In this document: piece after piece, positions 1 to 30,797 of the stretch | How the letters are laid out: every line of letters begins with the position of its first letter | How positions within the stretch are numbered: the first letter of the stretch is position 1 | From: Puniceicoccaceae bacterium | GTDB taxonomy: Bacteria; Verrucomicrobiota; Verrucomicrobiia; Opitutales; Oceanipulchritudinaceae | Direction: 5' to 3' | Length of the DNA stretch: 64,000 nt | NCBI GenBank assembly: GCA_040830765.1 | Contig: JBFOMH010000013.1 | Span: forward strand, 32,001-96,000 | The notes under the pieces: model-generated | The model's input: only the letters and a program-made list of their open reading frames with translations | Databases searched by the model: none | Told to the model about the DNA's origin: nothing | Program-made: the position numbers and the translations under genes

Positions 1-910
1 CATTGACCTGCATCCTCAGCCAAGGCCCGTTGTCACTGGTGAAAAGAATCAGGGTCTTCTTATCAATGCCAGCCTCCCTGAGCGCGCGGACGATCTCCCC
101 GACGCCCCAGTCGATTTCCTCCACCGTGTCACCGTACCGGCCCCGCGGGCTCTTGTCCTCAAAATCCTTCGAGGCGAACAGCGGTACGTGCGGCATCGTA
201 TGGGGCAAATAGAGGAGGAATGGCTCATCCTTGTGCCGATGGATGAACTGGACCGCTTCCTCCGCGTATCGCCTTGTCAATGTGTGCTGCTCCACCGGGC
301 GCTCGATGATACTGCGGTTGCGGTAGAGTGGTATGTCGTACCACCCGGGATCCGCGTTGGGATTCATACTGGCCTCGTAACGGACACGGCCCTCCTCGAT
401 ATTCATGTCATTCGAGTAAAGAAGCCCATAGTAGTAATCAAAACCCTGGCTATTCGGCAGGTGTTCCTCCCCTACTCCAAGATGCCACTTACCGACACAT
501 CCAGTGGCATAACCTGCTCCCTTCAGGACCTCGGCAATAGTGACTTCCCCGGCCACCAGTCCACCTTCATGATGGGGGTAAAGGACACGGCGCTTGGCGT
601 CTCCACTCATGCCACTCCGGATGGGTAGCCGTCCAGTAAGCAACGCGGCCCGGCTTGGGGTACAGACGGATGAGGCAACATAGAAACTGGTCAGCTTCAT
701 TCCCTCGCTGGCCAACCGGTCCAAATGCGGCGTGCGAATCGTCGGGTGACCGAAACCCCCCAGATCCCCGTAGCCAAGGTCATCGGCGAATATGATAATG
801 AAATTTGGTTTGCCGACTTCGTTCCCGGACTCCTCGTCACCCGTTAAAAGAACTCCCGCCAGCAAATGAACAATTAAGGCCAGTGTAAGGCCTCTTTTCA
901 TTTTACTCAT
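1..910 (-). CDS. Sulfatase (arylsulfatase A-like), 3' end cut off by the window edge
   Basis: Not in the ORF track because it has no stop in the window. Hand translation from ATG 910: MSKMKRGLTLALIVHLLAGVLL...KPNFIIIFADDLGYGDLGGFGHPTIRTPHLDRLASEG...CTPSRAALLTGR, i.e. signal-like N-terminus, DD metal site and CxPxR motif. Confidence 0.92.
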   Translation of the reverse strand, partial: MSKMKRGLTLALIVHLLAGVLLTGDEESGNEVGKPNFIIIFADDLGYGDLGGFGHPTIRTPHLDRLASEGMKLTSFYVASSVCTPSRAALLTGRLPIRSGMSGDAKRRVLYPHHEGGLVAGEVTIAEVLKGAGYATGCVGKWHLGVGEEHLPNSQGFDYYYGLLYSNDMNIEEGRVRYEASMNPNADPGWYDIPLYRNRSIIERPVEQHTLTRRYAEEAVQFIHRHKDEPFLLYLPHTMPHVPLFASKDFEDKSPRGRYGDTVEEIDWGVGEIVRALREAGIDKKTLILFTSDNGPWLRMQVN

Positions 911-1075
911 GATGCTTAGCCCTCGTTTCTCTTCATCTACCTATACAAATGTTTAGAATCGTCAACATCTGTTTCGATAGTTAAGAGCCGGGCTAATGAA
1001 AGATTCATCTTCCGTATCCGCAATTTCCCTTTTCAGGAACCTTCGTGGAGGTACCGGATGAGAGAACAAACAAGT

Positions 1076-1148
1076 ACCGTTTGCGAAATGATGGGTTCGC
1101 TGACTTCCGGTCAGCAGGTCGTCAGTTCGAGTCTGACAAATGGTTCCA
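1076..1148 (+). ncRNA. tRNA-like cloverleaf (non-canonical or pseudo-tRNA), apparent anticodon TCC
   Basis: Acceptor ACCGTTT/AAATGGT plus T-CCA; anticodon stem GCTGA/TCAGC with loop CTTCCGG; variable AGGTC; T arm GTCAG-TTCGAGT-CTGAC; short aberrant D arm GAA-ATGATGGG-TTC. Confidence 0.6.
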
Positions 1149-1169
1149 CTTGAATTGGAATGCCCCGCT

Positions 1170-2399
1170 TTATTTCACTTTACCGCTTTTCACCTTAAGC
1201 TGCTCAGCACTCTTACCTCGTCCCTTCAAGAGATTGGAACGAGAAGGTGTTTCGAGAATAGCTGACTGCTGTGCCGGTACGTTACGGGCCAGGCGGAGAC
1301 CATATTCTCCGCTAACAGTATCTATGGCTGATTGCGGCATCGGAAACGCAATGACCGCCCTGGAGGCATCCCTCAAGTAACTTCCCCCGGGGATATACCT
1401 GAGCCCATCGGTAGGCCCATCAAAGACCCACTCCCTGACATTGCCCGACATATCGTAAAGCCCCAACTCATTCGGCAACAAACCTCCGGCCGGCCAGGCT
1501 CCATAGGGAAGTTCTGGGATTATAGGACACTCAGAACCAAGGGAGTTATTTATATACCGGGCAACCTCGTCTGCAACATTGCTGCCGCTGTAGGTATAAT
1601 CCAGGCTCAATTGCCCACCGTGAGCAGCGTAAATCCACTCATCCCGCGTAGGCAGGCGGTAACCGTCAGCACCAGCGTCTGTATAAATAAGGCTGGGAGC
1701 AAGGCTGCCGGATTGATAAACAAGGGTGTACGACGCATCGGTAAAGTACGCCGGACTCAAGCCTTCATACTCACTCCGGGCATTACACCACTTCACGGCG
1801 TCATACCAGTTGAGATTGTTAATCGGATGGGCGGGCTTTACACATCCCCCAGCATTCCAGTTCACGCCAGCATTGTTGGTGAAACTGTAGCCGTTGGACA
1901 GCGCCCAGACATACACCTCATCCCATAATTCCTGGGTAATCTCGAAACGACCGATCTGGAAGTCGCTGGTGGTGACATCGACACCGGCGACATTGACCGT
2001 TCCGCCCTGTACCGAAACAAACTCGTCGGAGGTGTCATCCTCCTTGATGCGGTAAAACTTCTTAGTCCCGGTGACATCGTAGGCACCGGCCAATTCCGTG
2101 GACCAACTGGACAAATCGGAGCTGCTCTCCAAACGGACATGGGCCGGGCTTCCAACCGGGCGATTGACCAGAATGACATTCGAAACAAACGTTGCTTCCC
2201 CATCAGGCGTAACAGCGGCCCGGTAATAGACCGGTGAACTGTCCGAAGCGACCATTCCGGGTGTTGCGGAGGTCCAGGTGGACCCGTCCGGACTTGACTG
2301 GACGTCAACATCCAGACTGGTGGCGAAGGCGACCGAAAAGAGACAAGACAACCCAATGAAGGTTCGAATCCAATTTGCAGCAGATGAAGGTGTTTGCAT
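1170..2399 (-). CDS. Secreted FGE-sulfatase (SUMF1-like) domain protein, probably non-catalytic
   Basis: Motifs FEITQ, HPINNLNWYDAVKWCN, YRLPTRDEW, PNELGLYDMSGNVREW; signal-like N-terminus; start taken at MQTPSS. Confidence 0.85.
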   Translation of the reverse strand: MQTPSSAANWIRTFIGLSCLFSVAFATSLDVDVQSSPDGSTWTSATPGMVASDSSPVYYRAAVTPDGEATFVSNVILVNRPVGSPAHVRLESSSDLSSWSTELAGAYDVTGTKKFYRIKEDDTSDEFVSVQGGTVNVAGVDVTTSDFQIGRFEITQELWDEVYVWALSNGYSFTNNAGVNWNAGGCVKPAHPINNLNWYDAVKWCNARSEYEGLSPAYFTDASYTLVYQSGSLAPSLIYTDAGADGYRLPTRDEWIYAAHGGQLSLDYTYSGSNVADEVARYINNSLGSECPIIPELPYGAWPAGGLLPNELGLYDMSGNVREWVFDGPTDGLRYIPGGSYLRDASRAVIAFPMPQSAIDTVSGEYGLRLARNVPAQQSAILETPSRSNLLKGRGKSAEQLKVKSGKVK

Positions 2400-2472
2400 T
2401 TCGCCCGTATAGCTAGTTACCCGGAAAAATTCCGACAAGACTAATCAATATTGGACAAAATTTTATTGTTAT

Positions 2473-2478
2473 TTGACA
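2473..2478 (+). promoter_or_regulatory. Putative -35 box of the tRNA-Pro promoter
   Basis: Perfect TTGACA after an AT-rich tract, about 45 bp upstream of the tRNA; no clear -10 box. Confidence 0.45.
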
Positions 2479-2520
2479 ATTGGCGGGAAATATCCGCAAT
2501 TCTCCAACCTTCGGGGTCAT

Positions 2521-2597
2521 CGGGGCGTAGCTCAGCCTGGTAGAGCGCTTGCTTTGGGAGCAAGAAGTCGTCGGTTCGAATCCGGCCGCCCCGACCA
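2521..2597 (+). tRNA. tRNA-Pro(TGG)
   Basis: CGGGGCGTAGCTCAGCCTGGTAGAGCG, anticodon arm CTTGC-TTTGGGA-GCAAG, GGTTCGAATCC, encoded CCA. Confidence 0.97.
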
Positions 2598-2659
2598 TGC
2601 TTCGTTCTTCGAACTTCGCATGGCGCAGCCATGCTGAAGTGAGATTAGAACGAAGCATG
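2596..2659. repeat. Long nested inverted repeat attached to the tRNA-Pro 3' end
   Basis: CATGCTTCGTTCT (2596-2608) / AGAACGAAGCATG (2647-2659), with inner ACTTCGCATGG / CCATGCTGAAGT. Confidence 0.85.
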
Positions 2660-2665
2660 CCCTGC

Positions 2666-2740
2666 GTAGCGCAGCGAAGCACGGGCAGTAGCGCAGCGAA
2701 GCACGGGCAGTAGCGCAGCGAAGCACGGGCAGTAGCGCAG
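2666..2740 (+). repeat. Tandem repeat, 22-bp unit, three full copies plus a partial
   Basis: GTAGCGCAGCGAAGCACGGGCA at 2666, 2688 and 2710; partial at 2732. Confidence 0.95.
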
Positions 2741-2798
2741 TAGCCCTGCGGGAGTAAGCTTGTCAAACCGTGAAATGGCGCCTTAACTAGCATCCAAG

Positions 2799-3926
2799 AT
2801 GGCGAAATCGAAGGGAACGATTGGCATTCTGACCGCAGGAGGGGATTGCCCTGGATTGAACGCTGTCATCCGGGGAGTCAGCAAGGCAGCCATGCATTAC
2901 GGATGGAAGGTCCTTGGCATCCAGGATGGCTTCCGCGGGCTGGTAGAAAACCGGATGATTCCCATCGAGAACATCAATGTCAGTGGCATCCTGACCCAGG
3001 GCGGGACATTCCTTGGCAGCAGCCGTGACAAGCCGCACAAGATGCTGATGGGCGACAAGATCATGGACATGACGGACGTCGCCGTGGCCAACTACAACCG
3101 GCAACGGATCGACTGCCTGGTCTGCCTCGGTGGCAACGGTACCCAGAAAAATGCCTACCGGCTCCAGAAGGCGGGAATGAACGTCATTACCCTGCCCAAG
3201 ACAATCGACAATGACGTTGCCGGAACGGACATCACCTTCGGATTTGATTCTGCTATGGCGATTGCTACCAACGCCATTGACCAGCTCCATACCACGGCCA
3301 CCAGCCACCACCGGATCATCCTGTGTGAGATCATGGGGCACGATGCCGGATGGCTCTGCCTCGGGGCTGGCATCGCCGGAGGGGCGGACGTCATCCTGAT
3401 CCCCGAGATTCCCTACAAGCTGGACGTAGTTGCGGATAGCATTCTCAACCGTCGCCGAACCGGAAAGCGGTTCTCCATCATTGCGGTCGCTGAAGGCGTC
3501 CATCCCCATGACCCGAACCAGAACGGGAAGCGCTCCAAGAAGCAAAAGTCCCCCAAGGAAGTCGAGCTGATGGAGCATGCCAAAAACAGTGGCGTTCACC
3601 TGGTGCAGGAACCGGTGGCCAGCCGCATTGCCCGCGAGCTGCAGGGCCTGACCGGCGTGGAGGCACGGGTCACGTCACTCGGTCACGTCCAGCGCGGCGG
3701 AACCCCGACGCCCTTTGACCGGCTGCTCTGCACGCGTCTGGGGACCAAGGTGGGCGAGCTTCTTGATCAGAATCACTTCAACGTGCTCGTCGCTTTCAAG
3801 GGGAATCGCTGCGTACCGGTTCCGCTCGAGGAAGTTGCCGGTAAAAAGCGGATTGTCCCGGTCAACCATCCTTGGATTGCGACCGCCCGACTGGTCGAAA
3901 CCTGCCTCGGGGATGTTGTTGTTTAA
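2799..3926 (+). CDS. pfkA: 6-phosphofructokinase (PfkA family)
   Basis: [51 protein letters not shown]. Confidence 0.95.
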
Positions 3927-3935
3927 GAAAGGACC

Positions 3936-4943
3936 TCAGGCCTTCAGCTTGATGACTTCCTCGGCGATCTGGACCGCGTTGAGTGCGGCCCCCTTGAGCA
4001 GCTGATCACCCACGACGAAAAAGGCCAGTCCGTTGTCGAGGGCGGAATCGATTCGCAGGCGCCCCACCCCGCACTTGTCCTTGCCGGAGTACTGCAACGG
4101 CGTCGGATAAACATTGTTCGCGGGATCATCGCACAATTCCGCTCCGTCAAAGGAACGCACTGCCTCGCGAGCGGCTTCCAGATCAACCGGTCGTTCAAAC
4201 TCCGCATGGACCGCTATCGCGTGTGCCCGCATTACCGGCACCCGGACGCAAGTGGTACTGGCTCCCAATTCTGGCAAAGACATGATCTTGCGGCTCTCGT
4301 TGAGCATCTTGTGCTCCTCCTTGGTGTAACCGTCGTCGAAGAAAACATCCACATGCGGAAAGAGGTTGAAGGCGATCGGGTGGGCGTAATTTTCCGGGGG
4401 GCACTCAGTGCCCTCGTACCATGCCCGGAGCTGCTTCTCCAGTTCCTGCATCCCGGCTACACCGCTCCCCGAAACCGCCTGGTAAGTGCAGGCGACGAAG
4501 CGCTTGACGCCAAATGCCTGATGTAAGGGATGCAATCCCATCAGGGTAATAGCTGTTGAGCAGTTCGGGTTGGCGATAATGCCCTTGTGACCAGCCACTG
4601 CCCTGGCATTGATTTCCGGAACTACCAGGGGAACCTCCGGATCCATGCGGAAAGCGGAGCTGTTGTCGACAACCACACATCCCCGCGCGGCCGCCTCCGG
4701 AGCAAGGGTCTTGGTAATGGTTGCCCCCGCGCTGAAGAGCGCGATGTCCATCCCGTCAAACGCTTCGGGCCGGGCTTCCTCAATGACAAAGGTCTTGTCT
4801 TCGAAGCGGATTTCCTTGCCTGCGGAACGCCCGGAGGCCAATAACTTGAGCGAGGAGAAAGGGATTCCCCGCTCATGCACCAATCGAATGAGCTCCTGGC
4901 CAACCGCTCCGGTTGCGCCGACTATGCCAATTGAAACTGCCAT
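3936..4943 (-). CDS. asd: Aspartate-semialdehyde dehydrogenase
   Basis: GIVGATGAVG, VDNSSAFRM, IIANPNCST, TCVRVPV, DQLLKGAALNAVQIAE. Confidence 0.97.
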   Translation of the reverse strand: MAVSIGIVGATGAVGQELIRLVHERGIPFSSLKLLASGRSAGKEIRFEDKTFVIEEARPEAFDGMDIALFSAGATITKTLAPEAAARGCVVVDNSSAFRMDPEVPLVVPEINARAVAGHKGIIANPNCSTAITLMGLHPLHQAFGVKRFVACTYQAVSGSGVAGMQELEKQLRAWYEGTECPPENYAHPIAFNLFPHVDVFFDDGYTKEEHKMLNESRKIMSLPELGASTTCVRVPVMRAHAIAVHAEFERPVDLEAAREAVRSFDGAELCDDPANNVYPTPLQYSGKDKCGVGRLRIDSALDNGLAFFVVGDQLLKGAALNAVQIAEEVIKLKA

Positions 4944-4949
4944 TTTCCA

Positions 4950-5504
4950 GTGACTGATTTGAATGCTTATTTCGCCTGCCTCGAAGGACATGGCCTGAAA
5001 CGAACGGACCATGTCCTCCTGGCCTCGCTTGGCGAGAAAATTCTACACCACTGGCAGGGCGACACCTGCATTTCCAGCTACCCGATTTCCTTCAGCAAGC
5101 GTCCCCTCTCCTGCCAGGAAGGCTCACTTGGAACACCCTGGGGATTGCATGTCATTGCGGCCAAGCATGGACAGGATTCCCCACCAGGAATGGTCTTCAA
5201 GGGACGGGTTGCCACTGGCGAGCGCTGGCAGGACATGGCACCGGACACAGAGGACCGCAGCCTGGTGACCACCCGTATCCTCCGGTTGAAAGGCCTTGAA
5301 CCGGGGCTCAATAAAGGTCCCGGAATGGATTCCTTCGATCGCTACATCTACATCCACGGGACCAATCACCCGGAGCGGTTCCCGGACAACATATCCGCCG
5401 GCTGCATCCTCATGCTCGATGAGCCGCTGATGGAGCTTTTCGAGAGGGTTCCCGAAGGCAGCCATGTCTTCATCAGCCCGCCAGAGACGGGCCCTCCTTC
5501 ATGA
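4950..5504 (+). CDS. L,D-transpeptidase (YkuD) family protein
   Basis: GTPWG, RILRLKG, YIYIHGT...SAGCI catalytic His/Cys motif; start uncertain. Confidence 0.85.
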   Translation: MTDLNAYFACLEGHGLKRTDHVLLASLGEKILHHWQGDTCISSYPISFSKRPLSCQEGSLGTPWGLHVIAAKHGQDSPPGMVFKGRVATGERWQDMAPDTEDRSLVTTRILRLKGLEPGLNKGPGMDSFDRYIYIHGTNHPERFPDNISAGCILMLDEPLMELFERVPEGSHVFISPPETGPPS

Positions 5505-5581
5505 CTCCCGGAGGGTCCGCGTCCCGCGGACCAATCCATTGATTGAATTGCCAACCACTTCGGAACAACTACCCTGATATC

Positions 5582-6934
5582 ATGCGCTTGAGCGTCCTCG
5601 ATCTCTATACCATCGGTATTGGCCCGTCCTCTTCGCATACGGTCGGGCCGATGCGGGCCGCTGCACAGTTCGCCGCAAAAGTTGCCGGACAGTCGCCTAA
5701 CCGCATCAAGGTTGAGCTATTCGGCTCCCTGGCCATGACCGGGCGCGGTCACGGGACCCATCTGGCTATTGTCGCCGGACTGTCAGGTGAACTGCCGGAA
5801 AGCGTCAATCCGCAAAGCCTCCCCGAAACATGGAAGGCCGCCGAAACCAGCCATACCGTTCCACTGGATGGCAAATCCCCTTTTCCCTTTAAACCCGAGA
5901 AGGACCTGATTTTCAACCGCCGCAAGGTGCTCCCCTTTCATCCCAACGGGATGCAGTTCACGGCCTTTGATGAAAACGAAAAGGTACTGGCCAGTGAAAC
6001 CCTCTACTCCGTCGGCGGCGGATTTGTCGTTCGGGAGACGGATCCGCAGGCGGAAACACGTCCTTGCGCCTATCCTTTTACGACCGGAGAAGAGTTGCTC
6101 GAGTGGACCCAAAAGTGCCCCTTGCCAGTTTCGGCAATCGTCCGGGAGAACGAGACTGCCTGGCGACCGGCCAGGGAGACCAGCAAACGCCTCGATGCCA
6201 TTTGGTCGGCCATGCAGGGCTGTGTCGATGCCGGGTTGCATGCCGAAGGTTCCCTGCCGGGCGGCTTGAAGGTTCCCCGCCGCGCCCCTGGTCTCTACCG
6301 CAAGCTTTGCGAACGCCCGGAATCCGCCCTGCGCGATTCCCTGACTATCCTCGACTGGGTCGATGTCTACGCGATCGCGGTTAACGAGGAGAATGCCTGT
6401 GGCGGGCGCGTGGTAACAGCCCCTACCAACGGGGCTGCGGGGATTATCCCGGCGGTCATGCACTACTGTGATCGCTTCCTTTCTTCTCCGACCAAAAACT
6501 GGCACCGTGACTTCCTCCTGACCGCGGGGGCCATTGGCCTCCTCTTCAAGGAAAATGCCTCCATCAGCGGAGCTGACGTTGGCTGCCAGGGGGAAGTTGG
6601 CGTGGCTTGTTCGATGGCCGCCGGAGCGCTCGCGGAATTCATGGGCGGCTCACCACTACAAGTGGAAAACGCCGCCGAGATCGGCATGGAACACAACCTC
6701 GGCCTGACCTGCGACCCGGTCGGTGGCCTGGTCCAGATTCCCTGCATCGAGCGCAACGCAATGGGCGCGGTCAAGGCCATCAATGCCGCCCGTATAGCTG
6801 TGCGCGGCGATGGACAGCACTCCGTCAGTCTCGATGCCGTCATCCGCACCATGCGGGAAACCGGCAAGGACATGCGCCGCAAATACAAGGAAACCTCCCG
6901 CGGCGGCCTCGCCGTGAATGTGGTTGAGTGTTGA
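5582..6934 (+). CDS. sdaA: L-serine dehydratase (Fe-S, single chain)
   Basis: [39 protein letters not shown]...[17 protein letters not shown]. Confidence 0.97.
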
Positions 6935-6939
6935 GCCAG

Positions 6940-7045
6940 CTACAGGCGGGACGCCTGTAGTCTGTTGACGTACAGACGAGAGGCCTGTCCTACGTTCCAT
7001 CGCTGAGCGCTAAAGCCCAAAGGACTACAGGCATCTTGCCTGTAG
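6940..7045. repeat. REP-like palindrome cluster (family B, 3 copies)
   Basis: CTACAGGCGGGACGCCTGTAGTC (6940), GTACAGACGAGAGGCCTGTCCTAC (6970), GGACTACAGGCATCTTGCCTGTAG (7022), between convergent genes. Confidence 0.85.
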
Positions 7046-30671: not shown

Positions 30672-30698
30672 TCCGGATAAACAAGAAAGTTAAAAAAG

Positions 30699-30797
30699 TG
30701 GGCCAGGCACCCTACGGCACATGCGGGTTCCGGTTACCGTTGCTGCCTTCCGGCCCTGGCGGGATTCACCACCCCACATTGCATAGGACCCGGCCCA
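30699..30797 (-). ncRNA. ffs: Signal recognition particle RNA (bacterial small type)
   Basis: Minus strand has GCCAGGGCCGGAAGGCAGCA (helix 8, GGAA loop), closed by TGGGCC/GGCCCA; directly upstream of dnaX. Confidence 0.92.

Follow-up and report, generated by a model that had tools for sequence, protein, structure and literature searches.

The window, the whole stretch of DNA that was analysed (64,000 nt), corresponds to positions 32001-96000 of contig C13 of this genome, designated G000. Close to its left end, a sulfatase gene and an FGE-sulfatase domain gene are found on the minus strand, followed by a tRNA-Pro gene on the plus strand. ARAGORN called a tRNA-Gly(tcc) exactly at 1076-1148, in the spacer between the stop codon of the FGE gene and the promoter region of the sulfatase gene. 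An earlier reading based on the letters of the DNA (the sequence-only reading) had placed a cloverleaf at the identical coordinates, between sulfatase and FGE-domain genes, and both the call and the neighbours (PF00884 and PF03781) were confirmed. The element is referred to below as the pseudo-tRNA. The features of the locus are as follows.

2..910, minus strand: sulfatase gene (full gene C13:31465-32910), last gene of a 33-kb block; PF00884, E 2.2e-64; ortholog in the sister species G010 at 93-94%.
1054..1156, no strand: 103 nt without counterpart in the sulfatase-FGE spacer of G010; MAFFT, two spacers.
1076..1148, plus strand: pseudo-tRNA, called as tRNA-Gly(tcc); ARAGORN, Rfam score (26.1 vs 29) and folds.
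1076..1098, plus strand: 5' 23 nt with the acceptor 5' strand, linker and D region, the pairing of which completes the cloverleaf; alignment against shuffles.
1099..1148, plus strand: 50-nt copy of tRNA-Thr(UGU), from the anticodon stem 5' strand to CCA; alignment with C13:102-177.
1104..1110, plus strand: anticodon loop CTTCCGG (TTTGTAA in tRNA-Thr), of which the outer bases can pair, closing the loop to 3 nt; alignment and folds.
1111..1138, plus strand: 28-nt core equal to tRNA-Thr(UGU), with the anticodon stem 3' strand, variable loop, T arm and first acceptor base; alignment.
1138..1144, plus strand: 3' acceptor strand AAATGGT (AGCTGGC in tRNA-Thr); alignment.
1170..2438, minus strand: FGE-sulfatase domain gene, the ancestral downstream neighbour of tRNA-Thr as in the relative G005; PF03781, E 5.7e-25; positional orthologs in G010 and G005.
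2521..2597, plus strand: genuine tRNA-Pro(UGG), conserved right-hand anchor of the locus; ARAGORN, Rfam 68.5 bits, Lys-Thr-Pro order in relatives.

The sequence-only reading had described a complete 73-nt cloverleaf with a TCC anticodon and a CCA end, and every structural detail that it gave is present in the sequence. The acceptor stem (ACCGTTT/AAATGGT) has seven pairs including one G-T, and a GC linker (G8-C9) replaces U8-N9. The D stem (GAA/TTC) is A-T rich and 3 bp long, base 26 is missing, and the GG of the D loop and the T loop are both there. The anticodon stem GCTGA/TCAGC carries the loop CTTCCGG, the variable loop is AGGTC and the T arm GTCAG-TTCGAGT-CTGAC, and the element ends in a T discriminator and an encoded CCA. 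Four core features of tRNAs, namely U8, a 4-bp D stem, base 26 and an open 7-nt anticodon loop, are not found in the pseudo-tRNA.

The tRNA model of Rfam (RF00005) aligned 1076-1145 end to end with a score of 26.1 bits. This is below the gathering score of 29 bits, which was used as the tRNA cut-off. The pseudo-tRNA was not listed in the gathering-threshold scan of the window, in which the genuine tRNA-Pro and tRNA-Val scored 68.5 and 68.1 bits. A bacterial small SRP RNA is also located in the window (30698-30795, minus strand, 72.6 bits).

The identity set of tRNA-Gly, of the E. coli type, comprises G1-C72, C2-G71, G3-C70, U73, C35 and C36. In the pseudo-tRNA this set is incomplete: C2-G71, U73, C35 and C36 are present, as had been claimed, and A1-U72 and C3-G70 replace G1-C72 and G3-C70. 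By the alignment described below, G70, G71 and U73 were inherited from tRNA-Thr; the sequence-only reading had listed U73 and C2-G71 as identity elements of tRNA-Gly.

ARAGORN made 46 tRNA calls in the whole genome of G000. They include the canonical tRNA-Gly(UCC) at C4:203411-203484 and, at C13:23-177 on the plus strand, a pair formed by tRNA-Lys(ctt) and tRNA-Thr(tgt), 33 kb upstream of the pseudo-tRNA. Contig C8 ends in ~120 nt that recur at the beginning of C13 (tRNA-Lys and the first part of tRNA-Thr), and these two contigs thus abut. Two calls are odd, a 91-nt tRNA-Pro(cgg) and a 70-nt tRNA-Met with the anticodon at position 29 (C4:271848-271938 and C17:51966-52035), and may be fragments or atypical genes.

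When the region was compared with its own genome by BLAST, the sole other match was between window 1111-1148 and the tRNA-Thr gene's 3' end (C13:140-177, 92%). Aligned with tRNA-Thr(UGU) (C13:102-177, plus strand), positions 24-73 of the pseudo-tRNA (window 1099-1148; C13:33099-33148) have 42 of 50 bases in common, with an exact run of 28 nt at window 1111-1138. The eight differences comprise five of the seven loop bases (TTTGTAA to CTTCCGG) and three of the seven bases of the 3' acceptor strand (AGCTGGC to AAATGGT). By this alignment the 3' 50 nt are clearly homologous to tRNA-Thr(UGU), and the remark that the body recalls tRNA-Thr genes was well founded.

The 5' part behaves differently. The global alignment score of the 5' 23 nt against the first 26 nt of tRNA-Thr was matched or exceeded by 11217 of 20000 shuffles and by 8754 of 20000 random genomic 23-mers; 1076-1098 are unrelated to this gene. 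No further copies of the 5' part were found in G000, where the search returned only chance matches of 13-14 nt and the generic T-arm word GGGTTCG. The acceptor stem had been considered as a case of three compensatory double changes relative to tRNA-Thr. This was rejected: the 5' strand has no homology to tRNA-Thr, and its pairing is therefore no covariation. A foreign tRNA-Thr carrying this acceptor stem was also considered as a source and rejected, as a scan of 401 genomes of the phylum gave 29 places versus about 20 in the reversed control, none of them Thr-like.

The order of genes around the Lys-Thr pair was compared with that of relatives. In G008 and G009 the order is Lys-Thr-Pro-PFK, with 65 or 174 bp between tRNA-Thr and tRNA-Pro, and in G005 it is Lys-Thr-FGE'-Pro-PFK, with the stop of FGE' 4 nt away from the tRNA-Thr 3' end. 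In each of the six relatives compared, the genes that lie upstream of tRNA-Lys are conserved. The relatives show that the ancestral order is Lys-Thr-(FGE)-Pro-PFK, and the genuine tRNA-Thr of G000 has kept this ancestral position behind tRNA-Lys. In G000 the stop of the FGE gene is 21 nt from the tRNA-Thr fragment's 3' end, and the fragment beside the FGE gene thus occupies the spot of the genuine tRNA-Thr in G005. The FGE protein is 60-62% identical to its positional ortholog in G010, where neighbouring proteins reach 93-98% (PFK 98%), and 44% identical to the G005 ortholog (PFK 86%). It is a fast-evolving gene in a conserved position.

Two other ideas on the flanks were dropped. Entry of the FGE gene and the fragment from a foreign donor, considered in view of the 62% identity of FGE to its G010 ortholog, was abandoned as the sole close homologs in 37 genomes of the family are the positional orthologs of G010 and G005. 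A 3' flank of tRNA-Thr shared by G000 and G009 (tgcttcgc...gcatggcgcagcc) was rejected as proof of a kept ancestral flank, as this motif follows many tRNA genes of G000.

In G000 a metabolic block of 33 kb separates tRNA-Thr from the FGE gene, and the fragment is located exactly at the junction of block and FGE gene. Based on Pfam, the block encodes a HAD hydrolase, an aldehyde dehydrogenase, citrate-synthase-like proteins, an RpiR regulator, MFS transporters, an aquaporin-type channel, PhoD, GDPD, a glycerol-3-phosphate dehydrogenase-like protein, a TonB-dependent receptor and the sulfatase. Each of the 21 ORFs of the block that were queried is matched in G010 at 78-97% identity, and a contig break falls within the block there. 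The 702-aa protein at the right end of the block was found in three of 13 genomes of the genus (G000; G010, 87%; G002, 37%). More distant congeners are without the block at this locus, tRNA-Thr being followed by FGE and/or tRNA-Pro. As the block is common to G000 and G010 and its right-end protein is limited to three of 13 genomes, it would have been gained in the common ancestor of these two species. No recombinase domain was detected in the 23 ORFs scanned in the block region of G000, and the five six-frame matches to PF00589 in this genome are all outside contig C13. The block is compositionally native, with a GC content of 0.560 versus 0.564 and a larger tetranucleotide distance in 22% of genome windows. 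In G010, about 2.9 kb of DNA, situated between tRNA-Thr and HAD gene, lies within the trailer of this tRNA (L039:2991-5947, contig C136); it carries an IS110-family transposase (3306-4238) and a 446-aa ORF (4373-5713, minus strand) with no Pfam family.

The same tRNA gene is occupied elsewhere in the genus. In G004, an island of 10.6 kb (L040:2170-12846, contig C11) is bounded by tRNA-Thr on one side and, on the other, by a fragment beginning in the loop TTTGTAA and forming a 45-nt repeat. The island holds a tyrosine integrase (2307-3749), a DndB-like gene (3894-6221), a D12-class adenine (Dam-type) methylase (6187-7029) and six ORFs without Pfam family, and looks like a defence island. Similar tRNA-Thr fragments were observed in G012 and G017, exact from the anticodon loop onward as in G004. 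None of these three fragments is called a tRNA by ARAGORN. From these cases, tRNA-Thr(UGU) is a recurrent insertion site in the genus.

The pseudo-tRNA itself was found in a single genome. In a MAFFT alignment of the two sulfatase-FGE spacers, G010 has a gap of 103 nt opposite window 1054-1156, and the rest of the spacer is partly alignable. A search of 41 genomes gave matches in 18, all starting at a query position of at least 71, within the 3' part resembling tRNA-Thr, except in G000 itself. The conservation check that accompanied the sequence-only reading therefore went against it, the pseudo-tRNA being absent from the sister species and 40 relatives. Public sequences were scanned with two exact patterns. 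The pattern of the loop region had one hit in genome contigs, which falls in the S1-like coding region of a MAG from Clostridia, and none in viral contigs; that of the T-arm/acceptor junction had none in viral contigs and two in metagenome contigs, which are not tRNA-like. These are only chance hits. The pseudo-tRNA is present without any difference in contigs of three studies; these contigs are identical throughout the covered stretch and thus hold no information on constraint.

With the 3' 50 nt homologous to tRNA-Thr, chance need supply just the 5' completion of 23 nt. The frequency of such a completion was assessed in random contexts. Random genomic 5' context joined to positions 26-73 produced an ARAGORN call in 379 of 20000 trials, and random genomic sequence joined to positions 36-73 in 55 of 20000. 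Pairing of the acceptor stem at 7/7 was seen in 2313 of 400000 random contexts, and in 188 of 400000 together with a 3-bp D stem. The latter combination is rare for a single locus and is now and then expected when many tRNA fragments are screened, which makes it explicable by ascertainment across many windows, though not proven to be chance.

Folding predictions do not favour the cloverleaf. Its energy is -15.4 kcal/mol (-19.7 kcal/mol with an extended anticodon stem) versus -27.8 kcal/mol for the minimum free energy structure, a rod which destroys the T arm, and the cloverleaf is thus predicted to be worse by 8-12 kcal/mol. The predicted folds extend the anticodon stem to 7 bp, closing the loop CTTCCGG to 3 nt. 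For the genuine tRNA-Thr, the minimum free energy structure is the cloverleaf, at -30.9 kcal/mol.

No sigma-70-like promoter was found in window 850-1300. An assembled contig from an oligo-dT metatranscriptome spans window 700-1700 in one piece, which shows neither transcription nor a discrete RNA.

Many genuine tRNA genes of G000, and its tmRNA gene, are directly followed at the 3' side by a conserved palindromic trailer, TGCTTCG...CGCATGGCGCAGCC...CGAAGCA, for which no Rfam family was found. The strict motif follows nine of the 47 tRNA/tmRNA genes (ARAGORN), and looser variants follow several more. In the window it is located at 2598-2660 on the plus strand, behind tRNA-Pro, where it forms a hairpin of about 63 nt beginning at the CCA end (-45.2 kcal/mol, z -5.8); other sites are, for example, C4:203485, C5:55203, C12:26669 and C27:88970. 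A second trailer type, TCGACAAGCTCATGGCAGGCCAAGCGAG, occurs behind several of the Ser, Val, Leu and Arg tRNA genes; behind Arg-ccg it stands in tandem. Behind the pseudo-tRNA no trailer was found, neither the palindromic one in its strict or looser form nor the second type.

Taken as a whole, the pseudo-tRNA is probably a dead fragment of tRNA-Thr(UGU) at the distal border of the 33-kb insertion, with a cloverleaf completed by unrelated upstream DNA, and was later lost in G010. Recombination within or beside tRNA-Thr would have brought the block into the common ancestor of G000 and G010, and the same event would have duplicated the gene's 3' part. Loss of the integrase would have followed. The fragment would then have been deleted in G010, and in G000 it would have decayed in the loop and the acceptor strand. 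Since the fragment happens to find pairing partners in the 23 nt before it, gene finders would complete the cloverleaf and take the mutated loop for an anticodon UCC. The element most likely does nothing.

The sequence-only reading had mentioned, as an alternative, a pseudo-tRNA or the att scar of an island extending to the left. This alternative was right in that tRNA-Thr is found to the left, at a distance of 33 kb, and more distant relatives are without the block; the integrase is lacking. A match of the 3' half alone to a tRNA flanking an integrase had been named as an observation that would refute the sequence-only reading: the match of the 3' part was found, and an integrase in the block was not. 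The favoured proposal of that reading, a functional non-canonical tRNA-Gly-like RNA serving as aminoacyl donor or mimic, was not upheld, given a 5' third that is not tRNA-derived, the absence in relatives, a score under the Rfam cut-off and a disfavoured cloverleaf.

Some observations fit less well with a scar of the 33-kb block. Among them are the missing integrase, the native composition of the block and the rarity, in random contexts, of full acceptor pairing together with a D stem. In the anticodon loop, the starting point of the fragments in G004, G012 and G017, five of seven positions differ from tRNA-Thr, as do three of seven in the acceptor strand, with the 28-nt core between them exact. 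Differences on both sides of the core in one copy are not predicted by a single crossover within the tRNA. At four-fold sites, 454 of 1550 positions differ between G000 and G010 (0.29; JC 0.37). For a neutral fragment predating the split of these species, about five changes in the core are expected and none is seen, the chance of which is estimated at roughly 0.5-1%. The intact core would be accounted for by any one of gene conversion from tRNA-Thr, later origin and constraint, and the absence in G010 fits a later gain in the G000 lineage equally well.

In the case of a later and separate origin, the sulfatase-FGE spacer would have gained about 100 nt that include part of tRNA-Thr once G000 and G010 had split, leaving a dead sequence that is not the scar of the 33-kb block. 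Break repair or gene conversion templated by tRNA-Thr are possible routes, as is the remnant of a second element that had inserted at a secondary site and was then deleted. Such an origin would account for the lack of exactly 103 nt in an otherwise alignable spacer in G010, for a core unchanged despite a four-fold divergence of 0.29 and for the differences on both of its sides in the same copy, which a single crossover does not predict. It requires a coincidence, however, as the fragment lies exactly at the border of block and FGE gene and on the strand of the tRNA, the expected place of a scar. Moreover, G000 has no second copy of the 5' part. We regard this origin as unlikely. Considerably less likely still is recruitment of the fragment as a functional, lineage-specific tRNA-like RNA that acts as mimic, processing signal or non-ribosomal aminoacyl donor with a UCC-type loop and has its stems under selection. 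All four arms can pair and the CCA is encoded, the changes relative to tRNA-Thr cluster in loop and acceptor stem around the intact core, and full acceptor pairing with a D stem is rare by chance (188/400000). The identical sequence in contigs of three studies and the one oligo-dT metatranscriptome contig across the pseudo-tRNA might also be cited in its favour, but the former are identical throughout and uninformative on constraint, and the latter is no sign of transcription. A function is further at odds with the absence from G010 and all other searched genomes, the Rfam score under the threshold and an alternative fold that is 8-12 kcal/mol more stable. U8 and base 26 are lacking, the D stem has three A-T-rich pairs, and the loop can be closed to 3 nt. 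There is no promoter-like site and no trailer of the kind found after nine of 47 genuine tRNA/tmRNA genes, and the identity set of tRNA-Gly is at odds with A1-U72 and C3-G70.

If such an RNA existed, it would be a young, species-specific, tRNA-shaped molecule in which the T arm, variable loop and anticodon stem were kept by selection or repeated gene conversion while the acceptor stem and the loop were reshaped away from tRNA-Thr; we give this very little credence. It might be a decoy or a substrate of a tRNA-binding enzyme, and if the function were true, a new tRNA-like RNA would have been born from an integration scar. As a dead border fragment, the preferred reading, the pseudo-tRNA is of interest in other respects. 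It mainly calls for caution, since a full Gly cloverleaf is seen by tRNA finder and careful reader alike in what the tRNAs of the same genome and the sister species reveal as a tRNA-Thr fragment. It also dates and delimits an acquired 33-kb block of glycerophosphodiester, phosphate and sulfatase genes at tRNA-Thr(UGU), and marks this tRNA as a site of repeated insertion in the genus.

The pseudo-tRNA was compared with known tRNAs and tRNA fragments. With the canonical tRNA-Gly(UCC) of G000 (C4:203411-203484) it has the loop bases UUCC, U73 and C2-G71 in common. It differs from this gene in its Thr-derived body, in A1-U72/C3-G70 for G1-C72/G3-C70 and G37-G38 for A37-A38, in the lack of U8 and base 26, and in its score below the threshold. 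The non-proteinogenic tRNA-Gly species of staphylococci are full, conserved and expressed genes with altered T-loop features, which act as donors for peptidoglycan bridges. Like these, the pseudo-tRNA adds a further Gly-type anticodon to that of a canonical tRNA-Gly; unlike these, it is a fragment of a single genome, with a canonical T loop that comes from tRNA-Thr.

The island of G004 is a closer counterpart. It has the same target tRNA and orientation as G000, and its fragment also spans the anticodon region to CCA. In contrast to G000, an integrase is located beside the fragment, the 45-nt repeat is exact and the fragment is not called as a tRNA. Another tyrosine integrase gene of G000 itself (C18:1107-1706, plus strand; PF00589, E 1.1e-41) lies beside a tRNA-Gly(gcc) (C18:1853-1928) near a contig end, and is probably part of another tRNA-linked island.

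Displaced tRNA gene fragments at the borders of islands and prophages integrated in tRNA genes are reportedly the basis on which the Islander database was built, and integrases are said to prefer sublocations such as the anticodon loop (Williams 2002). The G000 block is unlike typical cases in having no integrase, in being compositionally native and in being common to the sister species; the repeat is inexact in the anticodon loop, where the crossover is expected, and in the acceptor strand, and G010 is without the fragment. The likeness to island-border fragments is found in a 3' partial copy on the same strand, tens of kb downstream of the intact tRNA, and in the way the fragment and tRNA-Thr bracket DNA that is absent in relatives, with the fragment next to the ancestral neighbour FGE. 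It extends to detection by a tRNA finder with the wrong isotype and a low score. In a published account (PMC9897764), partial tRNA genes from mobile-element integration are described as commonly listed as standard tRNAs, and GtRNAdb as listing island-border tRNA fragments as tRNAs. The pseudo-tRNA is an ordinary element of this kind, a fresh instance of the known island-border fragments.
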